A stretch of DNA of 64,000 nt from a virus. The notes below the pieces were generated by a model that worked only from the letters and a program-made list of their open reading frames with translations, made no database searches and was not told the DNA's origin. Position numbers and translations under genes: made by a program. Of this stretch, positions 2,220 to 44,803 are shown piece after piece. The DNA lies in the IMG/VR virus record IMGVR_UViG_3300008261_000018, positions 1 through 64,000 of that record, one strand, 5' to 3'. Each line of letters starts with the position of its first letter. Position 1 is the first letter of the stretch.

Positions 2220-2693
2220 ATGGCCAACAACTACGAAGTCGGCGCCACCCGTGTCCCCGCCGCCTGCTTTGCTCCAGGCGGGGCCGAGGCAGCCGTCTTA
2301 ATCAACGGCGAACTCCAGGACATCCTTGAACAAGATGACCGCCCAGAAGAGTTCGACGACTACTACGCAGGCTGCCTCGATACCGAGATGGGCGCCGATG
2401 GCTCCCTCTATCTCTCCAGCGGCGACGAATACTTCTGCCAAATGAGCTTCGAGTATCTGATCGCGAAGCTCGCAGAACGCAAGCTCATCACCAAGAGCTT
2501 CGGCATCCAGCTCGCCTACTACTGCAGCAAGCTCCGCCCCGACGAACACGGCGGCATCTACTGGCGAGCCCTGCCCAGCGGTGAAGTTCTAGCCATCGGC
2601 ACTCAGCTCGATGACCTTACCGACGAGCAGTTCCGCTATCTCGTCAACGTCCGCGAACGCCCTGCCACCTACACCTCCGCTCCCGACGCATGA
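2220..2693 (+). CDS. Hypothetical protein
   Basis: 157 aa ORF in operon orientation. Confidence 0.65.
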   Translation: MANNYEVGATRVPAACFAPGGAEAAVLINGELQDILEQDDRPEEFDDYYAGCLDTEMGADGSLYLSSGDEYFCQMSFEYLIAKLAERKLITKSFGIQLAYYCSKLRPDEHGGIYWRALPSGEVLAIGTQLDDLTDEQFRYLVNVRERPATYTSAPDA

Positions 2694-2971
2694 ACCACTC
2701 CCTGATCTCTCAGGCCAAGCGCTCATCGCGGCGCATCACTATCACCATCCCTCAATACGTCTTTGAGGCCGTGACTGCGGCCTCTGATCTCCAGGGCCGC
2801 TCCTTCTCCAACCTCGCCGCCTACCTCCTAGAGCGCAGCCTTGAATTCCTGAACCCACCAGAACCATGCCCGACCACATCGAAGCCACCTACATCGAAGA
2901 CCGCCTCGCTGTCGGCACCCTCGCCATCGAGGGCTATCTCCCCATCGCGGAGCACCTGCGCAACCGACTAG
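2690..2971 (+). CDS. CopG/ribbon-helix-helix regulator (cyanobacterial RHH_5-like)
   Basis: RRITITIP...A..QGRSFSNLAAYLLE motif. Confidence 0.7.
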   Translation: MNHSLISQAKRSSRRITITIPQYVFEAVTAASDLQGRSFSNLAAYLLERSLEFLNPPEPCPTTSKPPTSKTASLSAPSPSRAISPSRSTCATD

Positions 2972-4036: not shown

Positions 4037-4073
4037 TAAGAGGTCTGCTTCGTTTACTCATTCCTCCTTTCTC

Positions 4074-4412
4074 ATGGAACTCAACCTCGGCCCTCTCTCC
4101 TTCCGCGCCTATCGCGGCAATGGCTGGTGGAGCGCAGTCGGCGCTGTTGTCACCAACCGTGGATGCGGCCTCGCTCAACGTGAGTCCGCCATCCGCGCCA
4201 GCGCCAAGTCCGAGCACCTCACCGACATCACCGGCAAGGACAACCCGGAAGACACCTTCACCTGCCCGGTGTCCGGTGAGCTGTTCTACGGCAAGACCGG
4301 CTTCTCACCCCTCAGTGCGCAGCAGGTCTACGCCGCAACCCTGATCAAGCGCGCCCAGGCCGTCGGCCTCCAGGACGCCAAGGCCGCAACCGCTGAGCTG
4401 GCGAACGCCTGA
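4074..4412 (+). CDS. Hypothetical protein
   Basis: Strong phage codon bias; followed by a terminator-like hairpin at about 4420-4457. Confidence 0.65.
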   Translation: MELNLGPLSFRAYRGNGWWSAVGAVVTNRGCGLAQRESAIRASAKSEHLTDITGKDNPEDTFTCPVSGELFYGKTGFSPLSAQQVYAATLIKRAQAVGLQDAKAATAELANA

Positions 4413-18617: not shown

Positions 18618-18677
18618 TGCAACCTGCTTGCCACATGCAATTTGCTGGTTAGCCTGGAGCGCACCCAAGCAACCCAC

Positions 18678-19340
18678 GTGTCCTTCTGCACGATCGTCGT
18701 TGCTCTGGCAGCTTCTCCCGTCGCGGCTGTTGCTGACGGCAAAGAGGTCCTCGAGGCCTACGCCGAAACCACTACAGACGAACCCGTCAATCTTTTGCTA
18801 CGTGTTCGCAGTGGCACCAGCCCCGCGCAGCGTTTCGCTGCCAAGAGCAAAGGAGACCTTCTGATCATCTCAGGTGATCTGATCCTCTCCACCGATGGCA
18901 ACCAGCCCATCATTTTGATTCGCACGCTCTGCAACGCCCAGCCCGATCAGTTCGTCAACGAAACACTGATCGTGGGCCGCCTCAGCAGCGATGCCAAGGA
19001 GTCACCCTCCTCCAAGAGCGTGAGTCGCAGCGTTGCCGTCAACCGCTACGTCAACCAGGAGGAGATCACCGACTGGTTCCGTGTTCGCGCTTACGGCTAC
19101 TCGAAGGATCGCCTTCAGCAGGCCGATAAAGGCTCACTCGTTTCCGTCAGCGGCGTTCTCGAGCAACGCCGCAACCGAGACGGAGCTCCCTACCCCGAGC
19201 TCAAAGTCCGCCAGATCAAGGTCCACAACAAGAGCCGAGCTAGCAGTAGTTCGGCCAAGGACCCCGCTGCTGGTACCTCCGCAGTTGGCTACAGCCACTC
19301 GGACTTCACAGAAGACCTCGACATGCCCTCCACCTGGTAA
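18678..19340 (+). CDS. ssb: Single-stranded DNA-binding protein (tandem OB-fold)
   Basis: LIVGRL..D...VAVNR...TDWFRV.A.G...KGSLVSVSG.L; acidic C-tail. Confidence 0.75.
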   Translation: MSFCTIVVALAASPVAAVADGKEVLEAYAETTTDEPVNLLLRVRSGTSPAQRFAAKSKGDLLIISGDLILSTDGNQPIILIRTLCNAQPDQFVNETLIVGRLSSDAKESPSSKSVSRSVAVNRYVNQEEITDWFRVRAYGYSKDRLQQADKGSLVSVSGVLEQRRNRDGAPYPELKVRQIKVHNKSRASSSSAKDPAAGTSAVGYSHSDFTEDLDMPSTW

Positions 19341-20190: not shown

Positions 20191-20475
20191 TCACTCTGCT
20201 GCACCTTTCGTTAAGCCGCGCAACAGCTGCTCTGACCGCTGTTCACTCCAGTAGTGACCAGACATATTCTTTGCGGCTTCATTGGCTAGGAATCGCATCG
20301 CTGCTGGATAGGTCACCAAGACCTGCTGTGCCATCAGCTTTGAGATCTCTCTGAGCTCCTGTTCTGACGCTTTATCTAAGGCGTTAACGAACTGAGCCAG
20401 CCTGAGCTGCTCACCTACGGTCGGCTCAAAACTGGCGTCACCGCCAGCTTCCGGGTGTTCGATCATGGACACCAC
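20191..20475 (-). CDS. NblA-like protein (divergent)
   Basis: PTVGEQLRLAQFVNALDKASEQELREISKLMAQQ follows the NblA helix-loop-helix pattern LSLEQQF...MS.EQ....L..L..Q. Confidence 0.45.
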   Translation of the reverse strand: MVSMIEHPEAGGDASFEPTVGEQLRLAQFVNALDKASEQELREISKLMAQQVLVTYPAAMRFLANEAAKNMSGHYWSEQRSEQLLRGLTKGAAE

Positions 20476-20895
20476 GCCTCGTTAATTTGACCAACGCTAA
20501 CCATTTATCCGGGTCATGTCTGCTGTTGCCTATTACAAAGCCTGCTTAAACATATCATCGGTTTCCATTCCTTATTCAGGCGGCATTGCTCTCGCCATTC
20601 CTCCCAGGCAGATCCCTCCAGACGACTCCGACTTCCAAGCCCTTGACCTCCTGACTCAGTCGGGCGAACTGAGCGACTACCGGTACATTGAGGAGCAGTC
20701 ACAGCCGATCTTTCTTGCAACCCGACCCGACTCAGGAGATCGTTGACGCTCTTGAAGCCGCAAGGGTGTCAGAGGACGTTCGCGTTTTGATCGCCCGCTA
20801 CGGCTACGACGTCGTTGCACCCCTGTGGCAATACGTCAACCCGGCGCAACGCGGTGCCTTGGCTCTCGCCCGCAACTTCGACGGTGTCATCGTCC

Positions 20896-21327
20896 ATGAA
20901 CTCAGCACCCAGCCCGGACAGCCTGACCCTCTTTGACACCAGCAAGCTCATTCTCGATGAGCTGCGCAGGCACAACCAACTGCAAGAGCGCAGCCTGCAG
21001 CAGCAGGAGCACATCATGCAGCAGCTGCAGGATTTGCTCTACCTGATCAACGGCTTTACCTCCGGCGGCGCCAGCTTCAATGGCTACCTGCCGGATGCTT
21101 TCGTCTCGGCCTACCTCTCGATCCTCGGCCCCGTCCTGGCGCACAAAATCCAGAACGACGACATCGGCCTCGAGGAAATGATGAAGGGCGGCACCATGCT
21201 GGCTCGCCGTCTCCTGGAAGAACTCTCTGCCTACCGCAGCGAGCAGGGCGCACGAGACGTGCTCAGCGACGCCCTCGAGCTCCTTGACGATCCCTGGCAG
21301 CGCGATAGCTCCGAGGAGGAGGCATGA
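20896..21327 (+). CDS. Hypothetical protein
   Basis: 143 aa ORF. Confidence 0.6.
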   Translation: MNSAPSPDSLTLFDTSKLILDELRRHNQLQERSLQQQEHIMQQLQDLLYLINGFTSGGASFNGYLPDAFVSAYLSILGPVLAHKIQNDDIGLEEMMKGGTMLARRLLEELSAYRSEQGARDVLSDALELLDDPWQRDSSEEEA

Positions 21328-21533
21328 CCCCTCTGCGCTTGTTCCGTCAGTGGCGACTGATCACCGATCTCGCCAGCCAGAAGCGTCGCGCTCAACGTGA
21401 TCTTGACGGCATGCTCGTTGGCCTAGAAGGCAGGCACTATGAGATCACAGCAGAAGGAATGCGCTGGTCACTCACAATTTCTACACAATCTCCAGCTGCT
21501 CTAACTGTCGAAGCACTCGGTACTATTGAATAG
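21324..21533 (+). CDS. Hypothetical protein
   Basis: GAGGAGG RBS and ATGA overlap. Confidence 0.5.
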   Translation: MTPLRLFRQWRLITDLASQKRRAQRDLDGMLVGLEGRHYEITAEGMRWSLTISTQSPAALTVEALGTIE

Positions 21534-21758
21534 TTCTGGATTGCCATAGAGCTGGGCATGCTCTTTGTCGATCTCCCTGTTGATGCCAGCCACTGCTCGG
21601 ACTATGCGGTGGGCTACGACTGGCCTCTCACCTGCAAGCCAAGGGTCCCGTCGAGGACGTTCGGTAGCTCCTGGGTCGTTGTTCCTGTCTGACCGAACGC
21701 AAGGTCGACATGGCTTCCAGAATTGTCGCGCTTGCCCCGGAAGCCCTCCGGGGTTTTC
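21530..21758 (+). ncRNA. Candidate stand-alone structured ncRNA (~195 nt) plus terminator
   Basis: TACTAT -10 at 21521-21526; 5'/3' closing stem; nested multibranch stems; CCCCGGA/TCCGGGG-TTTT terminator at 21735-21757. Confidence 0.6.
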
Positions 21759-21824
21759 TATTGCTTGGCACTCTTTGATACAGACAAGTTGCTCTTCGTT
21801 ACATTGGATCAAAGCTGTTGATTC

Positions 21825-22592
21825 ATGCCCGCGCCAACGCGCTTTGAGGTCAACGGCGAACGCCATTACGCCACCGATAGGCCAGGCAAGGCCTATCCAT
21901 CGGTCACCACCATCCTTGGCAAGACGGCATCAGCCCATGCCAAGAAGATGCTCAGCAACTGGAACGCCAAGAACCCAGGCGGCAAGGAGGCTGCAGCCGC
22001 TCGTGGTACGGCCATCCACGCTGCCTGCGAGAACTACATTCGTGGCTTGCCCGTTAATGTCCCTGAGGCATACCTCCCATTTTGGGAGGGGCTCAGTCAG
22101 CACCTCGATCGCTACGACTACTTCCTGTGGTCCGAAAAGCCGCTCAAGCCTGAATGGAAATTCTGCACTGGCGAGGACGGGATCTCTCGCGTCTGGTCGC
22201 ACGAGTACGGCTTCTGCGGCTGCCCCGACCTGATCGGAGTCCGCAACAACGTCATCATCCTGGGCGACTTCAAGACTTCCAACCAGCCCTATTGCCGCTA
22301 CTTCCCCAAGGAAACCGATCGCTCCAACTTCACTGGCTGGAGCAAGATGAACAAATGCGGCTTGCAGCTCGCTGCTTACGCCCTGGCCGTTGAAGAGACC
22401 CTCGGTCTGCACGTCGACTGCGCTCAGATCCTGGTCAGTACACCCGAGATCGATCAGAACTTCTTCATCCACGGCGACGAGCTTGCACGCTTTCGCATTC
22501 GCTGGCTACAGAAGGTCCGCCACTACCGCGAACTCAAGGAGCTTGAGGCTCTCGCGCCTGAACAAGCAGAGCAAGAAGCTGTTCCTGCCTAG
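21825..22592 (+). CDS. PD-(D/E)XK exonuclease
   Basis: YPSVTTIL...RGTAIH...E...GCPDLI...DFKTS...LQLAAYA. Confidence 0.85.
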   Translation: MPAPTRFEVNGERHYATDRPGKAYPSVTTILGKTASAHAKKMLSNWNAKNPGGKEAAAARGTAIHAACENYIRGLPVNVPEAYLPFWEGLSQHLDRYDYFLWSEKPLKPEWKFCTGEDGISRVWSHEYGFCGCPDLIGVRNNVIILGDFKTSNQPYCRYFPKETDRSNFTGWSKMNKCGLQLAAYALAVEETLGLHVDCAQILVSTPEIDQNFFIHGDELARFRIRWLQKVRHYRELKELEALAPEQAEQEAVPA

Positions 22593-22616
22593 GCTGTAAC
22601 CAACAGCGGCATCTAT

Positions 22617-22931
22617 ATGCTGTCAACTCGTGTTCGCCTTAAGGCTGAATTTATCTGCGCTCGCATCGCCAAGCGACAAGAAGTTCAGCTGGCGGACATG
22701 CAGTGGATCCAGAAGTGGGCCAAGAGCAACCACACTGTTGACTCCATGCTGCGCCGTGCGCGACGGCAGGCCATCCATGGCGATGAACCGATGAGCGAAC
22801 TCGACGCGTTCATGCAAGCCATGGACCTGGGGGATCCCGACCCAGCCAATCATCTCAACGGACCGCAGAGCCCCGTCAACTTGGCGGAGTGGTTCTCGGA
22901 AGAACGAAAGTGGTTCCAAGGCAATGACTGA
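22617..22931 (+). CDS. Conserved cyanophage-type hypothetical protein
   Basis: MLST..RL...FIC.RI....EV.L.DM.W..K...DLGDPDP. Confidence 0.65.
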   Translation: MLSTRVRLKAEFICARIAKRQEVQLADMQWIQKWAKSNHTVDSMLRRARRQAIHGDEPMSELDAFMQAMDLGDPDPANHLNGPQSPVNLAEWFSEERKWFQGND

Positions 22932-23112
22932 CTCCACCCAGCTCCTCACCGAAGCGCTCCGGCTCCTGGCCACGCTCGAGGATCTGATGACGACAGCCGA
23001 CATCCTGGGCGATACGGTCGGCTACCACCGGTATCGCGATGCCGTTCACAACGCCAAGATCCGCTACGCCCGCCGGCATCGGCGCTACATCAACGAGCGT
23101 CAGCAGGCATAA
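22924..23112 (+). CDS. Hypothetical protein
   Basis: Overlap-coupled; ends at terminator. Confidence 0.5.
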   Translation: MTDSTQLLTEALRLLATLEDLMTTADILGDTVGYHRYRDAVHNAKIRYARRHRRYINERQQA

Positions 23113-23168: not shown

Positions 23169-23786
23169 TCAGGCAGCCACTGGCCCCCGCTTTTCAAACG
23201 CTTGTCGCACTGCATCAGACGCATAGCCGGTCACCAGGGCAAAACCCTCGACCATCTCGTCGTCATAGATGCCCTCGGTGGCCAACAGGTTCAGGGCCGA
23301 CAGCGTCAGACCCAAGCGTTCGCGGATCGCATCGCTCACGCCCGCCTGCTTCAGAGCCACGATCGGCCAGGTGTACGGCGCTGATGCGGCAGGTGCATTC
23401 TCGTCGCCGGCCATCTTGAGAGCCGCTTCGTGCATGGACTTCATCAGGGCAGGCAGGTCCTGCTGCCCGGCGCTGCTGCGAATCCAGCTCTCGACGTCTG
23501 AGAGGGACACACCGGTCAGATACTCGCCGGTCTCGTAGTACGCCACCAACGCGTCGAGGGTCACGCCCAGCTCCTTGGCCAGGTGCCGCTGGATACCCAG
23601 TCCAACTTTGAACGGCGGCACCACCTGCTTGAGGTATTTCGTCATGGTGCCGATCGTTATACCGATCCGCTCACTCAGCTCCCGCTGGGAATAGTTGTTG
23701 AGCGTCAGAGCTTGCAGCAGCGCTCGCTTGAAGCGCTCTGTATGCAGCTGGTCTTCCTGACCCCTGAGAACGGATGCACTGTCCAT
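23169..23786 (-). CDS. XRE-family HTH transcriptional regulator (repressor-like)
   Basis: SQRELSERIGITIGTMTKYL...LAKELGVTLDAL; divergent from the primase. Confidence 0.75.
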   Translation of the reverse strand: MDSASVLRGQEDQLHTERFKRALLQALTLNNYSQRELSERIGITIGTMTKYLKQVVPPFKVGLGIQRHLAKELGVTLDALVAYYETGEYLTGVSLSDVESWIRSSAGQQDLPALMKSMHEAALKMAGDENAPAASAPYTWPIVALKQAGVSDAIRERLGLTLSALNLLATEGIYDDEMVEGFALVTGYASDAVRQAFEKRGPVAA

Positions 23787-24032
23787 AATCGATTCACGGT
23801 CTTTGGCTTGCAGTGCGGCAACCATAGGTCGTCGAAATGGCCAAATGGGCAGGCTTTCGATTTGGTCCAGATTCGTGGACTGCGTCACTGTAAGACCCGT
23901 CGGCACTGCAGGCGGCACGTAAGAATCCCTGCACTGCAAGCGCTTTTACGAAATCTTGACGCTGCAGCTTGACGCCCGTGGCATCATCTGCGTGCGACAC
24001 GGCGTGCATGGTGCGCGCCAGAATCGCCATTT

Positions 24033-26501
24033 ATGCCTCACACGTCCCGCACTATGACGCTGATTTTCTGCACGCACCCGGCCATCAAGAACAAGCCGGA
24101 GCACTGGGATCCAGCCTTCGCCTCTAACTGGCAGGTCCAGAGCGCCGACCTCGAAGCCCTCAAAGAACACGTTGCCGCTGGCGGCGCCTTCATTCCAGCG
24201 GGCATGACCTCCGCGCATCGCAGCAGCAGCGCATTTGATGCAGCCGACCTCGCCGTTGTCGACATCGACAGCGGTCTGAGCACCGAGGACTTTCTCGCCC
24301 ACCCACTCGCACCCTCCGCCTGCTGGGCCTACACGACAGCGAGTCACGCGCCAGAACAGGGCAAGCACCGCTTCCGTGCTGCCTTCCGGCTCCCGACCCG
24401 CCTGCACGATCCTGACCTCTACAAGGCGGTCATCACGCTGCTGTCCCGTGCACTCGGTGGCGACAAGAGCTGCACTGACCCCTGCCGCCTGTTCTATGGC
24501 AACGACCAATGCACTCATTTGCTTTGGCAGCCGGATGCAGTACTGCCGTTTGAGCTGATCGATGACGCTCAGCGGGAAGCAGAGCGCCAGCGCCGGCACT
24601 ACGACCGGCAGACCGCTGACTACGACGAGATCTCGATTGACCGAGCAATCTTTTGCCTCGAGCAGATCATCGAACCCACCAACGATGGCGAGCGAGACCG
24701 CTTCATCAAAGTCACCGCTGCCGCTCGTTCGGCCGGGGACCGTCTCTTTACCGCCTGGTCCGACTGGGCCTCGCGCGGTCACCACGGCAAAGGCAAGAAC
24801 TCCCGCCAAACCTCAGAGAGATTCTTTCGCGGCCTGAACGGCACATCACTCGGCAGCCTGTTCTATCTCGCCAGCGAGGACGACCCCGACTGGCGCGACA
24901 AGCTGCCTGAGGAACTGCGCTCCAGTGGCGGCGAAAGCAAGCTCGGCATCTTCGGTGACGCCTTCGCTGGCTATGCCCATGAGGACTTCCTTGGCGAACC
25001 CGAGGAGCTGCCGCCCGACGAGGAGACCATGTCGCTCTTCGATGCCGAGCGGCCCTGGACTCGGATCGCTGTGGTTCAGCAACAGGGCGCTTCCGCCGCA
25101 GTGGTAGACGCCCCGCCCCGCATTCAGCACGTTGCCGCGCCCGAGCTCGATGAGGATTACGACGACGACTACGACGACGAACTTGGCGCCGATGACGACA
25201 TGTTCAACCCGCCTCTTGCCGCCGGGCGAGGCAACCTTGACCGGCAGGGGGGCGGACGCCCTGCAGCCGGTGCTGACCAAGACCAGATCGACCTGATCCG
25301 CACCCGTCTTACGCGCCTCTACCCAGGGCTCAGGCTCAATGCCATGAACCAGGAGATGGAGTTCGGCCCCAAAGAGAACCCCCAGCAGGTCCACGACATC
25401 ACAACCGCCTACGTCCGAATCTCTCGGGGGCTGCAGCGCGTCCTCCCAAAGATGCTCACGCACGACACCGCCAGCATCATTGCCTACGAGAACCGCTATC
25501 ACCCCGTCCGCAGTTACCTCGAGCACTGCGCGTCCTCGGCGGCCCCCTGCCCGTACTTCGACCGACTGGCCTCTGAGCTGCTTGGCCTGCCGCCCAATGA
25601 GATCGACAATCCACGCATGCCCAATGGCAACCTCGTTGCCGACGAGGTCATGCGTCGCTTCTTGATCGGCGCTGTGGCCAGGGTCTTCCAGCCCGGCTGC
25701 ACCCATGACTGGATGCCTGTCCTGATCGGTCCGCAGAACGCAGGCAAGACAACCTTCTATCAGTACCTGACACCGCCCAGCCCGAACGACCCGGGCAGCT
25801 ATCCATGGGTGACAACCATGCAGCAAGGCATCAGCTACATCAAGGACAAGCCCCACGTCCTGCACTGCGGCTGGGTTGTCGTCCTCGATGAAGTGGAGCG
25901 CTACTTCAAGCGAGCCACCACCGAGGAACTCAAGAACATCGTCTCGGTCAGCAACGATCGCTCTGCCAGGAAGTACGAGAACGAACGGTCCTTCCAGCGC
26001 GCCTTCGTCCTGGCCGGTGCCACCAACAGCAACGACTTCCTGGTGGATCCCACCGGCAACCGTCGCTTCATGCCGATCGTCGTGACCGGCAAGGTGCCGA
26101 GCCGCGAGAACCCCAAGATCAAGATCATCGACCTTGACCGCCTCAAGGCCGACCGCGACGCCATCTGGTCAGCGGCTTACCAGGCGTACCTCGATAACCC
26201 GGTCCATACCTTCTCCAGCTACGAGCTCTCCCACATTGCCGAGTACGTGGATTGCTTCACCCGCGACAACCCCGTCGATGATCCATTGGCTCGCGTCCTG
26301 GAGCGTAATCACAGCGGCTACCACCAGGGCCAGGTCTACTGGTGCCTCGCCGATATCTTCAAGTGGCTGGAGATCTCGATCCGCGACCAGTCATCCATGA
26401 CCATGGCGATCACCGATTCCCTTAAGCGCTCCGGCCACAAGCAACGTCGTTGCCGCATCGGCGGGCGGGTCCGCAGGATCTGGGTCAAGGGCGAAGACTG
26501 A
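24033..26501 (+). CDS. Primase-helicase (N-terminal primase-like/PriCT region, acidic linker, VapE/VirE helicase)
   Basis: VDID...YTTASH...RFR; HPVRSYL; Walker A GPQNAGKTT; VLDEVE; GATNSNDFLVDPTGNRRF. Confidence 0.9.
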   Translation: MPHTSRTMTLIFCTHPAIKNKPEHWDPAFASNWQVQSADLEALKEHVAAGGAFIPAGMTSAHRSSSAFDAADLAVVDIDSGLSTEDFLAHPLAPSACWAYTTASHAPEQGKHRFRAAFRLPTRLHDPDLYKAVITLLSRALGGDKSCTDPCRLFYGNDQCTHLLWQPDAVLPFELIDDAQREAERQRRHYDRQTADYDEISIDRAIFCLEQIIEPTNDGERDRFIKVTAAARSAGDRLFTAWSDWASRGHHGKGKNSRQTSERFFRGLNGTSLGSLFYLASEDDPDWRDKLPEELRSSGGESKLGIFGDAFAGYAHEDFLGEPEELPPDEETMSLFDAERPWTRIAVVQQQGASAAVVDAPPRIQHVAAPELDEDYDDDYDDELGADDDMFNPPLAAGRGNLDRQGGGRPAAGADQDQIDLIRTRLTRLYPGLRLNAMNQEMEFGPKENPQQVHDITTAYVRISRGLQRVLPKMLTHDTASIIAYENRYHPVRSYLEHCASSAAPCPYFDRLASELLGLPPNEIDNPRMPNGNLVADEVMRRFLIGAVARVFQPGCTHDWMPVLIGPQNAGKTTFYQYLTPPSPNDPGSYPWVTTMQQGISYIKDKPHVLHCGWVVVLDEVERYFKRATTEELKNIVSVSNDRSARKYENERSFQRAFVLAGATNSNDFLVDPTGNRRFMPIVVTGKVPSRENPKIKIIDLDRLKADRDAIWSAAYQAYLDNPVHTFSSYELSHIAEYVDCFTRDNPVDDPLARVLERNHSGYHQGQVYWCLADIFKWLEISIRDQSSMTMAITDSLKRSGHKQRRCRIGGRVRRIWVKGED

Positions 26502-35556: not shown

Positions 35557-35897
35557 CAGTCTTCAGATTCCAGGACAATTGCGTCCATGTCCAGCTCCAT
35601 TGTGGCATTTTCCCATAGGCCACGCATATAATCTTCTGCTTCTTCGTCACTCGGGACGTAGCCAAAAATCTCAGCGAAGTCTTCCTCAGTCTCAGGCGCA
35701 AACAGCGTCGCCCCCTCGTCCATCCTGAAGATGTAACCAGCTGATCGCGTCGTCGACAGAAAGATCTGCTTCTGCCGAAATCGCGCCTCCCAGCAATCGA
35801 GTAGCGCAGCTTTCAATTCCTCCCTTGAGAGGTCGCTGATCTCGAGTTCGATGCGACGCAGTAGGTACTGCTGTTCGTGCGTCAGGTTCTCGTCCAT
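35556..35897 (-). CDS. NblA-like phycobilisome degradation protein with acidic C-terminal extension
   Basis: LTHEQQYLLRRIELEISDLSREELKAALLDCWEARFRQKQIF; GGAGG RBS; starts inside the HNH ORF. Confidence 0.65.
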   Translation of the reverse strand: MDENLTHEQQYLLRRIELEISDLSREELKAALLDCWEARFRQKQIFLSTTRSAGYIFRMDEGATLFAPETEEDFAEIFGYVPSDEEAEDYMRGLWENATMELDMDAIVLESED

Positions 35898-43663: not shown

Positions 43664-44803
43664 TTACACCACCTTGTACTGAATAATGATCAGGCCGTCC
43701 CCACCGTCGCCGGCGTAATTGTCGTTGCCATAGCCACTCCCACCACCGCCGCCGGCGTTGCCGCCATGGCCACCACTGCTGTAGTGGCACGCGCCGCCAC
43801 CGCCAGCGAGAATCCCGCCGCTGCCGGCCACCAGGTATCCGCCGTTAGTGGATACAGCCCCAACCCCGCCGCCGCCGCCGCCCGGAGCACCGTTGGCGCC
43901 GTTGGCAAAGAAAAAGCCGGAGCTTTGATTGAATGCTCCGCCGCCGCCGCCGCCGCCACCGCCAAAGATGATCTCGTTAGGAGACAGGATCACTCCGCCT
44001 TCCCCGGGCTGAGCCGGACCAGCTACGTCGCCGCCATAGCTGACATAACCCAGATACGTCCTGGCCCCTTGGCCCCCGCCACCGAGAATGCCGGGGCCTC
44101 CCTGCCCAGCGCTGTAGTAACCCAAGTTCGAGGAGAAGCCTGGGCCAGCAGAGCCGCCGCCGCCGCAACCCATGTAATAGCCGTCACCGCCCTCGCCGCC
44201 GATGCCAGCACCACCACCAGCGCCGCGCGTGCTGAAGCCGTGCCCTCCGCGGTATCCGTCAGATAACCCGTACGGGGCAGGAGCAGATCCCCCGCCGCCG
44301 CCGCCAGCATTGGTCGACGCTGCGTTGTAGCCATCGCCCCCTGTTCCGCCCCGACGATTGATATCGCCGCCAACGCCAAGTCCGCCAACGCCGTAAGTCG
44401 AACCGCTGCCCTGATTGGGAGTGCCATTACCGCCACTGTTACCACCAGTTGCTGAGCAGTGAGCGCCGAATGAGCTCGTGCCTCCTACCCCGTCAAAGGC
44501 GGTAGCACCAGTACCAATCACGAGAGTCTCAGTAGAGCCCAGTGCGCTGGTATTGATATATTTCAATGCCAGTCCGCCACCACCGCCGCCCTTCGCGTAC
44601 GGCGCGGGTGCCCCTGAGTTCCCGTAGTCGCCAGCACCACCAGCTCCCCAGACGTGCACGAGAATACGGGTACCGATGAGCCCGGCAGGCTTCTCCCATG
44701 TATATGTTCCAGCAATATGGAAGATCTCGTACTGGTTAAATTCACCCGGCAAGCCGCCGCCACCGCCGCCACCGCCGCTGCTACCCGGAAATCTCCTTCC
44801 CAT
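43664..44803 (-). CDS. Glycine-rich tail/receptor-binding protein A2
   Basis: MGRRFPG...ILVHVWGAGG...polyGly...GDGLIIIQY; paralog of 46053-47186. Confidence 0.8.
   Translation of the reverse strand: MGRRFPGSSGGGGGGGGLPGEFNQYEIFHIAGTYTWEKPAGLIGTRILVHVWGAGGAGDYGNSGAPAPYAKGGGGGGLALKYINTSALGSTETLVIGTGATAFDGVGGTSSFGAHCSATGGNSGGNGTPNQGSGSTYGVGGLGVGGDINRRGGTGGDGYNAASTNAGGGGGGSAPAPYGLSDGYRGGHGFSTRGAGGGAGIGGEGGDGYYMGCGGGGSAGPGFSSNLGYYSAGQGGPGILGGGGQGARTYLGYVSYGGDVAGPAQPGEGGVILSPNEIIFGGGGGGGGGAFNQSSGFFFANGANGAPGGGGGGVGAVSTNGGYLVAGSGGILAGGGGACHYSSGGHGGNAGGGGGSGYGNDNYAGDGGDGLIIIQYKVV

Follow-up and report, generated by a model that had tools for sequence, protein, structure and literature searches.

A conserved structured RNA with a four-way junction in the replication and recombination gene module of uncultured tailed phages

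GOLLD, ROOL and HEARO are orphan structured RNAs of phages and mobile elements that were discovered by comparative genomics. The pRNA of phage phi29 exhibits a helix joining its 5' and 3' ends, a multi-helix three-way junction and two loops able to pair. YrlA comprises an end-joining stem with a conserved bulge and a multi-branched, tRNA-like module with a UCGA-type loop, and 6S RNA folds into a long hairpin with imperfect pairing and a central bubble. RNAs of about 200 nt with an invariant multi-helix junction have repeatedly proved to be riboswitches, ribozymes or parts of ribonucleoproteins. Here, we describe an RNA of this size encoded in a 64,000-nt stretch of viral DNA, hereafter the window, which corresponds to positions 1 to 64,000 of IMG/VR record IMGVR_UViG_3300008261_000018. 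It is a strongly conserved member of an unnamed family of structured RNAs found in uncultured tailed phages.

The initial annotation could not assign this RNA to a known family, and the searches agree. Among the 4227 models of Rfam 15, only a group I intron, located elsewhere in the window, reached the gathering threshold when the whole window was searched, and only RyhB (E 9.5) appeared in the region 21300-21900 at E values up to 10. No match at the gathering threshold was obtained for 13 related loci, and five further members gave nothing on the RNA at E up to 5. ARAGORN detected no tRNA or tmRNA gene in the window, and no description of the RNA was found in the literature. A catalogue of csRNAs mined from IMG/VR by covariation comprises 8,495 unnamed candidates of 29-151 nt (PMC10690425); as it drew on the same kind of viral contigs, part of the RNA may be among these candidates, and nothing like it is described in the portions of the main text considered here. 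Our best reading is that the RNA belongs to no catalogued family and represents a probable new class of phage RNA located in a DNA-metabolism module.

Fold and covariation of the RNA family

The folded RNA of approximately 197 nt occupies positions 21530-21726 of the plus strand, with a core of 145 nt at 21566-21710 (Table 1). Both ends are joined by the outer helix P1; next come a small hairpin (P1a) and helix P2, on which a four-way junction opens. P2 itself, the arm formed by P2a and P3, a hairpin of 3 bp whose loop CRUCGA is invariant, and the P4 arm meet at this junction, and, save for two bases (YA), no linker separates one helix from the next. The invariant block of the family, GGK-UCC-CRUCGA-GGA-C, served as the basis of the pattern used to search for family members, a first DNA pattern having been over-specific (3 stretches only). 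In the window copy, this block comprises the 3' strand of P2a, the small hairpin (TCC 21646-21648, loop 21649-21654, GGA 21655-21657) and the first base of P4.

Table 1. Features of the RNA and of its flanks, in window coordinates.
Feature	Position	Strand	Basis
TACTAT, proposed -10 box	21521-21526	+	Letters only, unsupported as promoter
P1 5' strand (ATAGTTCTGGA, TT, GCCAT); 21530-21546 pairs with 21711-21726	21530-21547	+	Letters and minimum-energy fold
P1a hairpin (AGAGC, loop TGGGCAT, GCTCT)	21548-21564	+	Letters and minimum-energy fold
P2 5' strand TGTCGATCT, ending in a nearly invariant CU; pairs with AGGTCGACA, 21702-21710	21566-21574	+	Both sides change in 8/9 pairs (A2)
P2a 5' strand CCC, pairs with GGG 21643-21645 (helix SCC/GGK)	21575-21577	+	Covariation
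P3 domain: GCCAG 21585-21589 with CTGGC 21620-21624, enclosing P3a	21585-21624	+	Covariation
P3a hairpin: CCACTGC, loop TCGGACTAT, GCGGTGG	21590-21596, 21606-21612	+	Covariation
Invariant block GGG-TCC-CGTCGA-GGA-C	21643-21658	+	Invariant or nearly invariant columns in A2
P4 domain: CGTTCGGT 21658-21665 with ACCGAACG 21692-21699; internal loop and inner hairpin between	21658-21699	+	Covariation
Joiner CA (YA in the family), then P2 3' strand AGGTCGACA	21700-21710	+	Alignment and covariation
P1 3' strand (TGGC, T, TCCAGAATTGT)	21711-21726	+	Letters and minimum-energy fold
Intrinsic terminator: GCCCCGGA, loop, TCCGGGGT, then TTTTC	21734-21758	+	Terminator scan

All the stems proposed in the initial annotation were found where it had placed them, and the minimum-energy fold of 21521-21760 on the plus strand gives them back. 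Nevertheless, this single-sequence fold is not significant (z = -1.76, with 10 of 200 shuffles folding equally well; z = -1.17 for the minus strand), and we take the stems as real because they covary across relatives. Wide-window energy folds had noisy ends, and a helix finder was used instead. In alignment A2, which comprises 33 distinct copies aligned by sequence only, 94.8% of the cells pair, versus 35-44% in slid controls. Conservation among the homologs is compensatory rather than codon-type: both sides change in 25 of the 35 pairs, and none of 500 shuffles reached the observed covariation values, either in A2 or in an independent set. Both sides change in every pair of P3 (5/5), in 7/8 pairs of P4 (99.2% of the cells pairing) and in 4/7 pairs of P3a (98.3%). 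The first pair of P2a is G.U in 19 and C-G in 13 of 32 rows, without exception, and the same two states account for 23/29 and 6/29 rows of the independent set. The only proposed stem needing revision is GTCC/GGAC (21645-21648 with 21655-21658): its letters are present, but the outer G-C pair is not kept in the family. The outer G, which is the K in GGK, covaries instead with the first base after P2.

With regard to the periphery, the two flanks are predicted to form a P1-like helix of 5 or more pairs in 61 of 67 members, a count made without shuffle control. The motif RUAAG is present in the 3' flank of 53/67 loci and forms a bulge in P1, which is absent from the 3' strand of the window copy. 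The position of P1a is also occupied by a hairpin in relatives such as L003, with another sequence. The core ranges from 145 to 236 nt across the family, and its junction is invariant although the GC content of the RNA spans 41-75%. A mutual-information scan for additional tertiary pairs gave subgroup signal only and no new pair, and a candidate pseudoknot, in which CCCUG of the joiner would pair with CCAGGG of P4, was dropped, as the latter element pairs locally and covaries there. Two invariant loops, UCGA and UCGG, carry letters that are complementary or palindromic; no covariation was observed between them.

Strand, boundaries and genomic context

Several positions of A2 are dominated by U.G or G.U pairs (for example 32/33, 27/33 and 19/32 rows). 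Such pairs would turn into mismatches in the complementary RNA, which places the RNA on the plus strand, as had been proposed from its G-U pairs. It could be argued that there is no RNA gene at this site and that the stems are a chance fold in GC-rich DNA or part of a coding stretch (ORF 21558-21692 on the plus strand or 21501-21866 on the minus strand). The weak z score of the single sequence (-1.76) would agree with a chance fold, and open frames cross the core in 45/71 copies, which is expected for GC-rich DNA. Yet the covariation, unmatched in 500 shuffles, contradicts a chance fold, and a coding stretch is contradicted by core lengths that modulo 3 divide into 29, 21 and 21 over the 71 copies, by stops in all six frames in 26/71 cores, and by the absence of any Pfam match for the minus-strand ORF. 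Both versions are therefore already refuted, and the claim of a non-coding RNA of about 197 nt with a multibranched structure is borne out, with indels that are not in multiples of three.

The initial annotation had also given the RNA its own promoter and terminator. TACTAT is present as letters, but a sigma-70 scan of 20500-23000, which needs two spaced hexamers and thus covers promoters other than those with a -10 box only, returned no promoter-like site, and no conserved -10 box is visible by eye in the relatives; a promoter at this place finds no backing. In 36/71 loci, a conserved ORF on the same strand ends 8-91 nt before the core (32-41 nt in 25 loci), at or near the start of P1, which makes a transcript shared with the upstream gene no less likely than an own promoter. 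In the window, the TAG stop of a 69-aa ORF (21324-21533) falls within the 5' strand of P1. Across the family, the position of the RNA is fixed to the upstream stop codon and not to the downstream start; the RNA usually begins just past such a stop codon and ends at a terminator. In the window, the terminator scan located a hairpin at 21734-21754 ahead of a T run, and its 8 pairs, of which 6 are G-C, are characteristic of an intrinsic terminator. A hairpin and T run are found at the same place in L003, L004 and L263, the nearest relatives, and a T run lies at most 90 nt past the core in 46/70 loci, often right after P1, in a count without shuffle control.

The RNA sits in a replication and recombination gene module that comprises SSB, an exonuclease, a primase/helicase, RusA, a Sak-like annealing protein and a Dda-like helicase. 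The PD-(D/E)XK nuclease before which the RNA had been placed is the next conserved downstream gene in 19/71 loci, and its family, phrog_298, is present in 18/30 RNA-bearing records; this link holds in part only, as phrog_298 is missing from two of the five records that are at least 90% complete (G017 and G018). Elsewhere the downstream genes include the Dda-like helicase, an operon with RusA and a Sak-like protein, a dNMP kinase, and small genes ahead of the terminase; they have a module in common but not a family. A co-oriented gene is found 3' of the RNA in every locus. In the high-GC group, the RNA lies in the apparent 5' leader of the Dda-like helicase gene and starts a transcription unit diverging from the primase gene. 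Several observations favor a free-standing gene over a leader: the neighbors differ between groups, the gap to the next gene varies from 20 to more than 900 nt, exonuclease and SSB are upstream of the RNA in L365, and, in the window group, an invariant box of the nuclease's own, CGTTACATT, lies beyond the terminator. With 8 matches versus 5.6 expected, this box is no more frequent in the window than chance would have it. In L005-L007, other ORFs separate the RNA from the downstream gene. Terminase genes occur within about 2 kb of the RNA in group B only, and no GC-skew switch is observed at the RNA site.

No phage protein is common to all five complete RNA-bearing genomes (blastp, E 1e-4), so no partner can be named. 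A small protein that resembles ribbon-helix-helix proteins, by sequence reading, is encoded in four of the five complete genomes at a position that is not fixed. The 94-aa ORF at 20191-20475 was considered as NblA-like and rejected, since Pfam NblA matches only 35790-35888, below the cut-off.

The covariance model matches 51 of 98 viral sources (37-132 bits), 42 of 120 metagenome loci (30/80 and 12/40) and 2 of 120 cellular-genome loci, and it matches the genome of the window once, with 119 bits. In total, the RNA recurs in at least 70 distinct phage loci, and the block motif is single-copy in each of the five complete genomes. One copy is located on a short contig binned with a Synechococcaceae MAG and another in a mobile-element island of a genome from the same family as this MAG; at least some members are associated with picocyanobacteria. 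Neither the window locus nor three other members representing their groups gave a blastn match among 50,697 GenBank phages. The only cultured phage with a related exonuclease (44.6% identity) is S-EIV1, whose whole record has no copy of the RNA according to covariance model R1.

Possible functions

Our preferred reading, to which we give a probability of about 0.45, is that of a discrete and stable RNA, about 200 nt long, that works in trans. It would form the 3' end of the transcript of the upstream gene, or else have a promoter that went unrecognized, stop at the terminator and persist as a compact molecule. A conserved partner, be it a small molecule or a protein of the host or the phage, could bind to the invariant junction and loops, and P1, with the UAAG bulge conserved in most members, may provide a second platform that binds protein or protects the ends. 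Given the neighborhood, the effect may concern phage DNA replication or recombination, or host defense. Several points weigh against a trans-acting RNA: the five complete genomes have no phage protein in common; the co-oriented gene following the RNA in every locus and its apparent leader position in the high-GC group fit cis regulation equally well; and sequence conservation as extreme as that of the junction is seen more often in aptamers and ribozymes than in RNAs that bind proteins.

The serious rival to the trans-acting RNA is a cis-acting switch controlling transcription elongation or termination, which would gate the downstream DNA-metabolism genes and which we consider possible, with the odds against it. 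One version would be a sensor akin to a riboswitch, in which the folded RNA with closed P1 creates or favors the following terminator; the other would be a put- or EAR-like RNA that alters the very polymerase that has just made it. The terminator of the window and the T runs after the RNA in 46/70 loci would be explained in this way, as would the co-oriented gene that always follows, the coherence of the downstream genes as a module (exonuclease in 19/71 loci, Dda-like helicase, RusA/Sak-like operon, dNMP kinase), the invariance of the junction over the whole GC range, and the opening of a divergent transcription unit in the high-GC group. However, a cis-acting switch fits poorly with an immediate downstream gene that is not of one family, with the very variable spacing and the intervening ORFs in L005-L007, with a nuclease that has its own conserved box after the terminator, and with a position tied to the upstream stop codon. 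Moreover, no conserved anti-terminator pairing was found, the 5-bp alternatives seen in the window and group B being missing from L003 and L004.

An RNA that is part of the replication, recombination or packaging machinery, for example as a cofactor or guide of the exonuclease or helicase, an origin transcript, or a pRNA-like oligomer held together by its UCGA and UCGG loops, is unlikely. Its steady place in the module, the presence of phrog_298 in 18/30 records and the complementary or palindromic letters of the two loops are consistent with such a role, but two complete genomes, G017 and G018, lack the exonuclease, the five complete genomes have no protein in common, GC skew does not switch at the site, the Rfam pRNA model does not match, and the two loops do not covary. 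Still less probable is a ribozyme, such as a self-cleaving RNA that would cut a polycistronic transcript between genes. Intergenic sites in variable phage contexts, like those observed here, are typical of several self-cleaving classes, and the invariant nucleotides are concentrated at the multi-helix junction. Against this, to our knowledge, the known self-cleaving classes are among the Rfam families, none of which matches, the core of 145-236 nt is larger than most small self-cleavers, and no cleavage-site signature was recognized.

The family is supported by unusually clean covariation in at least 70 phage loci, in viruses linked to picocyanobacteria, and its defined 145-nt core, with a ready covariance model, is amenable to biochemistry. 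The family may indicate that phage DNA metabolism, gene timing or counter-defense includes an RNA-based step not yet shown by any cultured phage. More speculatively, the RNA might be a new functional class with an activity of its own, common to many picocyanobacterial phages: a riboswitch using P1 and the U run as terminator, a ribozyme, or a cofactor that arms or aims recombination enzymes (the PD-(D/E)XK exonuclease or the Dda-like helicase) or blocks host defense.

Comparison with known structured RNAs

The RNA had been called 6S-like in size and more branched in topology. Both statements stand, as it measures about 200 nt and covariation supports a four-way junction; the likeness to 6S RNA is one of size only, and no 6S model matches. 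Like YrlA, the partner of Ro60, it exhibits an end-joining stem with a bulge, conserved in most members, and a multi-branched module with a UCGA-type loop. In contrast, the order of its arms differs from that of a cloverleaf, and ARAGORN sees nothing tRNA-like. A TROVE (Ro60, PF05731) gene was found in none of 16 RNA-bearing records, six of them complete, whereas control genomes gave signal.

Riboswitch aptamers and put or EAR RNAs resemble it in that the junction core is invariant, a terminator comes immediately afterwards and the genes that follow are co-oriented. The invariant junction block and the covarying helices provide the kind of conserved, structured, aptamer-like core expected of a riboswitch; a conserved alternative pairing, which is also expected, was not found between the window and its closest relatives. 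The RNA further differs from these elements in that it matches no known class, showed no conserved expression platform, precedes genes that do not form one family, and is tied in position to the upstream stop codon.

The phi29 pRNA is likewise phage-encoded, with an end-joining helix, a multi-helix junction and two loops with pairable letters. Nevertheless, the junction described here is four-way, the RNA is located in a DNA-metabolism module, its loops show no covariation with each other, and it does not match the pRNA family of Rfam. With regard to GOLLD, ROOL and HEARO, the new RNA is much smaller (about 200 nt), exhibits its own four-way junction and invariant block, and has no match in Rfam 15. 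Like them, it combines a complex, covariation-supported fold with varied neighbors on phages or mobile elements.

The RNA at the window locus

All letters of the stems proposed in the initial annotation were confirmed, and the minimum-energy fold of window positions 21521-21760 yields the same stems. On the + strand, the fold energy of this stretch is -91.2 kcal/mol, which is unremarkable for its composition as a single-sequence fold (z = -1.76, with 10 of 200 shuffles equally stable); the opposite strand at the locus gives z = -1.17. The proposed terminator was also recovered, as a hairpin followed by a T run. The RNA takes up most of the interval between a 69-aa ORF, whose TAG falls within the first bases of the outer helix P1, and a 255-aa ORF, which matches the phage exonuclease family phrog_298 (E 1.3e-34) and gives a weak match to Pfam PDDEXK_1, below the cut-off. 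The 69-aa ORF shows no family match and, in the closest relatives (loci L003 and L004), is missing between the homolog of a 170-aa gene and the RNA.

Approximately 25 nt before the exonuclease start lies a box, CGTTACATT, which is found at the same place in L003-L011 and is nearly invariant across the ten related loci. In several of them, the box forms an inverted repeat, GTTACATT ... AATGTAAC, around the ribosome-binding region. Elsewhere in the window, the box shows no excess over chance (8 matches versus 5.6 expected). Candidate roles for it are a gene-specific operator, a promoter and a 5'-UTR hairpin.

Features of the window, and selected features of related records (A2, alignment of 33 distinct cores; G013, G017 and G022, complete RNA-bearing genomes)
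Feature	Position	Strand	Basis or remark
TACTAT	21521-21526	+	letters read
Outer helix P1	21530-21546 with 21711-21726	+	letters, minimum-energy fold
Hairpin P1a	21548-21564	+	letters, minimum-energy fold
Helix P2	21566-21574 with 21702-21710	+	letters, minimum-energy fold; 8/9 pairs change on both sides (A2)
Helix P3	21585-21589 with 21620-21624	+	letters, minimum-energy fold; 5/5 pairs change on both sides (A2)
Helix P3a	21590-21596 with 21606-21612	+	letters, minimum-energy fold; 4/7 pairs change on both sides (A2)
Helix P4	21658-21665 with 21692-21699	+	letters, minimum-energy fold; 7/8 pairs change on both sides (A2)
Terminator-like hairpin and T run	21734-21754	+	terminator scan
Box CGTTACATT	21797-21805
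69-aa ORF	21324-21533	+
SSB-like gene	18642-19340		near RNA
Exonuclease (255-aa ORF)	21825-22592		near RNA
Regulator	23169-23939	other strand	near RNA
Primase/helicase	24033-26501		near RNA
Ribbon-helix-helix-like protein (putative)	2690-2971	+	also G013 66939-67202, G017 4057-4260, G022 44361-44567
NblA-like match, PF04485	35790-35888	-	weak, 22 bits versus cut-off 25; inside 240-aa open frame
Group I catalytic intron, RF00028	57953-58355	-	60.3 bits, E 8.2e-13
RNA-bearing MAG stretches	L361, L363, L365 (G032); L362, L364 (G031)

Relatives and conserved core

The source virus record of the window is complete (85,174 bp, with terminal repeats). Ten related viral loci were recovered via the exonuclease protein, and their upstream alignment exhibits compensatory changes in a hairpin, as well as a nearly invariant block, GGKTCCCRTCGAGGAC. 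A search of the viral collection for this block gave 91 stretches, of which about half seemed to be chance matches within coding DNA and the remainder true relatives. The covariance model R1, trained on 33 distinct cores, gave 51 matches (37-132 bits) on 98 viral sources, with members separating cleanly. These matches include the nine nuclease-related loci supplied to R1 (L003-L011), among which L005-L007 have the RNA placed farther upstream, with other ORFs in between. In the whole genome of the window, the single match is 21566-21710 (119.3 bits). R1 members made up 30 of 80 and 12 of 40 of the pattern-bearing metagenome loci listed, and 2 of 120 of the pattern-bearing cellular-genome loci listed, the other matches there being at most 26.8 bits. 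Since all three pattern scans need a near-exact block, with diverged copies outside their scope, and the genome and metagenome counts cover listed matches only, these member counts are lower bounds. The RNA noticed at the window locus is real, and the finding is larger than was visible there: the RNA belongs to a family across phage loci.

A2 is a sequence-only MAFFT alignment, the ends of which were set by a routine seeking the P2 and P4 helices. Over its 35 proposed pairs in six helices, standard pairs fill 94.8% of 1125 cells, versus 35-44% in controls with the 3' partners slid by 1-3 columns. Changes on both sides occur at 25 of the 35 pairs, the covariation score is 0.548 versus 0.07-0.10 in the slid controls, and none of 500 shuffles attained any observed measure. 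The metagenome alignment A4, comprising 29 distinct rows outside the R1 training set and aligned by R1, shows 93.8% pairing versus 33-47% in controls, with both-side changes at 24/35 pairs.

The core is a four-way junction. P2 leads straight into P2a/P3, the GGK of the invariant block leads straight into a 3-bp hairpin (UCC, loop CRUCGA, GGA) that continues straight into P4, and the linker from P4 to P2 consists of two bases only, YA. The three bases 3' of P2 (SCC) pair with GGK, the S-K pair being G.U in 19/32 and C-G in 13/32 rows of A2, with no exceptions, and G.U in 23/29 and C-G in 6/29 rows of A4. The GTCC/GGAC stem proposed initially is present in the letters of the window; in the family, its outer G-C pair is replaced by this long-range S-K pairing. 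A mutual-information scan of the family gave no further long-range pairs. Outside the core, P1a and P1 are present in most members. At least five pairs form between the 5' and 3' flanks in 61 of 67 members, which is weak evidence because this flank-only fold is without shuffle control. RUAAG occurs within the 3' flank of 53/67 members (approximately 7% expected for random letters, by our own arithmetic); the RUAAG bulge is missing from the window copy, which does have P1 and P1a.

Near-constant wobble pairs are observed in nearly all A2 rows (U.G 32/33, U.G 27/33, G.U 19/32). As these positions would not pair if the other strand were transcribed, the RNA strand is the + strand, as its G-U pairs had suggested. 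Its non-coding nature is likewise borne out: the core lengths of 71 copies spread 29, 21 and 21 modulo 3, and all six frames are closed in 26 of them. Complete copies have cores of 137-236 nt (115 nt in one copy ending at a contig end), and no protein family matched the ORFs crossing the window copy. A chance fold or a coding stretch has a negligible likelihood.

Transcript ends, gene neighbourhood and carriers

With regard to the promoter attributed to the RNA, no sigma-70-type promoter was called by the scan of 20500-23000, and no conserved promoter was seen by eye in the relatives. A conserved same-strand ORF ends 8-91 nt 5' of the core in 36 of 71 distinct loci (ORFs being called mechanically and retained only if present in at least three loci), and 25 loci have a spacing of 32-41 nt, equal to the length of P1 plus P1a. 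These upstream ORFs fall into several unrelated clusters. In most members, no room for a promoter is therefore seen, and an own promoter is not supported; TACTAT is a possible, unsupported -10 box of the window copy. On the 3' side, a T run is found within 90 nt of the core in 46/70 loci (without control), often directly after the GC-rich end of P1. Other loci, among them the window, L003, L004, L263 and group B, one locus group of the family, have a separate hairpin ahead of the T run, which is absent within 90 nt of the core in the high-GC group.

The link to the adjacent nuclease holds in part. In 19 of 71 loci, with at least three kinds of upstream context among them, the first conserved gene downstream of the RNA is the exonuclease. 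Of 30 RNA-bearing records, 18 encode phrog_298; among the five that are at least 90% complete, three encode it, and G017 and G018 lack it. In one group, the RNA precedes an operon encoding a RusA-like resolvase together with a Sak-like annealing protein. In the high-GC group, it has a divergent primase gene on one side and a Dda-like helicase on the other, and in a third group it is followed by small genes without assigned function and then by putative terminase subunits, as judged by eye. In L365, an exonuclease and an SSB lie 5' and a dNMP kinase 3' of the RNA. The five complete RNA-bearing genomes (42-85 kb, 56-62% GC) carry the block once each and have no protein common to all (blastp E 1e-4). 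A small, putative ribbon-helix-helix-like protein (RxTITxP ... EGRSxSNLAA) occurs in four of them, its position with respect to the RNA not being fixed; its four carriers otherwise have few genes in common.

The two cellular-genome matches are short contigs of a Synechococcaceae MAG and a Candidatus Fonsibacter lacus MAG, which carry two and three copies, respectively, in whole-genome searches. Given their GC content of 46-64% and their phage genes (RusA, exonuclease, SSB, dNMP kinase, Dda-like helicase), these stretches, including the Candidatus Fonsibacter lacus copies, look like phage sequence that was binned into the MAGs. Among 151 genomes of the Synechococcaceae MAG's family, matches were found only in that MAG and in G090. 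The G090 copy is diverged (43 bits; G090:C1:424399-424527, equivalent to L367 9900-10028, - strand) and lies on a 2.98-Mb contig, approximately 6 kb from a tRNA-Pro (L367 3619-3692). It adjoins integrase-core fragments, an AAA_25 protein (914 aa) and a PAS-GGDEF-EAL gene; it sits in a mobile-element island, which looks like a decayed integrated element. Thus, in the genomes searched, the RNA is no host housekeeping gene. For at least part of the family, the hosts are likely to be picocyanobacteria.

Proposed function and comparison with known RNAs

The RNA is compact, has an invariant junction and occurs once per genome, between a stop codon and a terminator in a DNA-metabolism module. We propose, with a probability of about 0.45, that it accumulates as a discrete ~200-nt species, released by the terminator and acting in trans. 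Termination, perhaps together with a cut 3' of the upstream stop codon, would release the RNA, which would act through its invariant junction and loops. This is suggested by a position fixed to the upstream gene and the terminator and not to any downstream start, by neighbours that change between groups, by the invariant box that the window-group nuclease has for itself after the terminator, and by the extra conserved outer helix.

The main rival is a cis-acting switch governing termination or read-through into replication/recombination genes. The terminator, or P1 plus a U run, does come next, a co-oriented gene is always downstream, and an invariant core of this kind is typical of aptamers. 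Against it, no conserved alternative pairing was found; we consider such a switch a serious rival, somewhat less likely than action in trans. There is a small chance that the RNA is itself part of the replication, recombination or packaging machinery, and a slightly smaller one that it is a ribozyme. The absence of a TROVE/Ro60 gene from all 16 RNA-bearing records searched argues against a phage-encoded Y-RNA system.

As in the initial annotation, the RNA could be assigned to no known family: Rfam 15 gave no match to it in the window at the gathering threshold, in 21300-21900 at E up to 10, in 13 relatives at the gathering threshold or in 5 additional relatives at E up to 5. ARAGORN called no tRNA or tmRNA. 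Searches by blastn of 50,697 GenBank phage records returned nothing for the window locus or three group representatives, and R1 found no copy in S-EIV1, the sole cultured phage whose exonuclease is related. The cyanophage-linked motifs named in passages of PMC2864571 all have Rfam numbers, and none of these matched the RNA. No description of it was found in the literature searched. According to passages of PMC10690425, 8,495 unnamed viral RNA candidates of 29-151 nt were obtained from IMG/VR, and a piece of the window RNA may be among them. The family is a new, well-defined class of phage RNAs, the function of which is directly testable.
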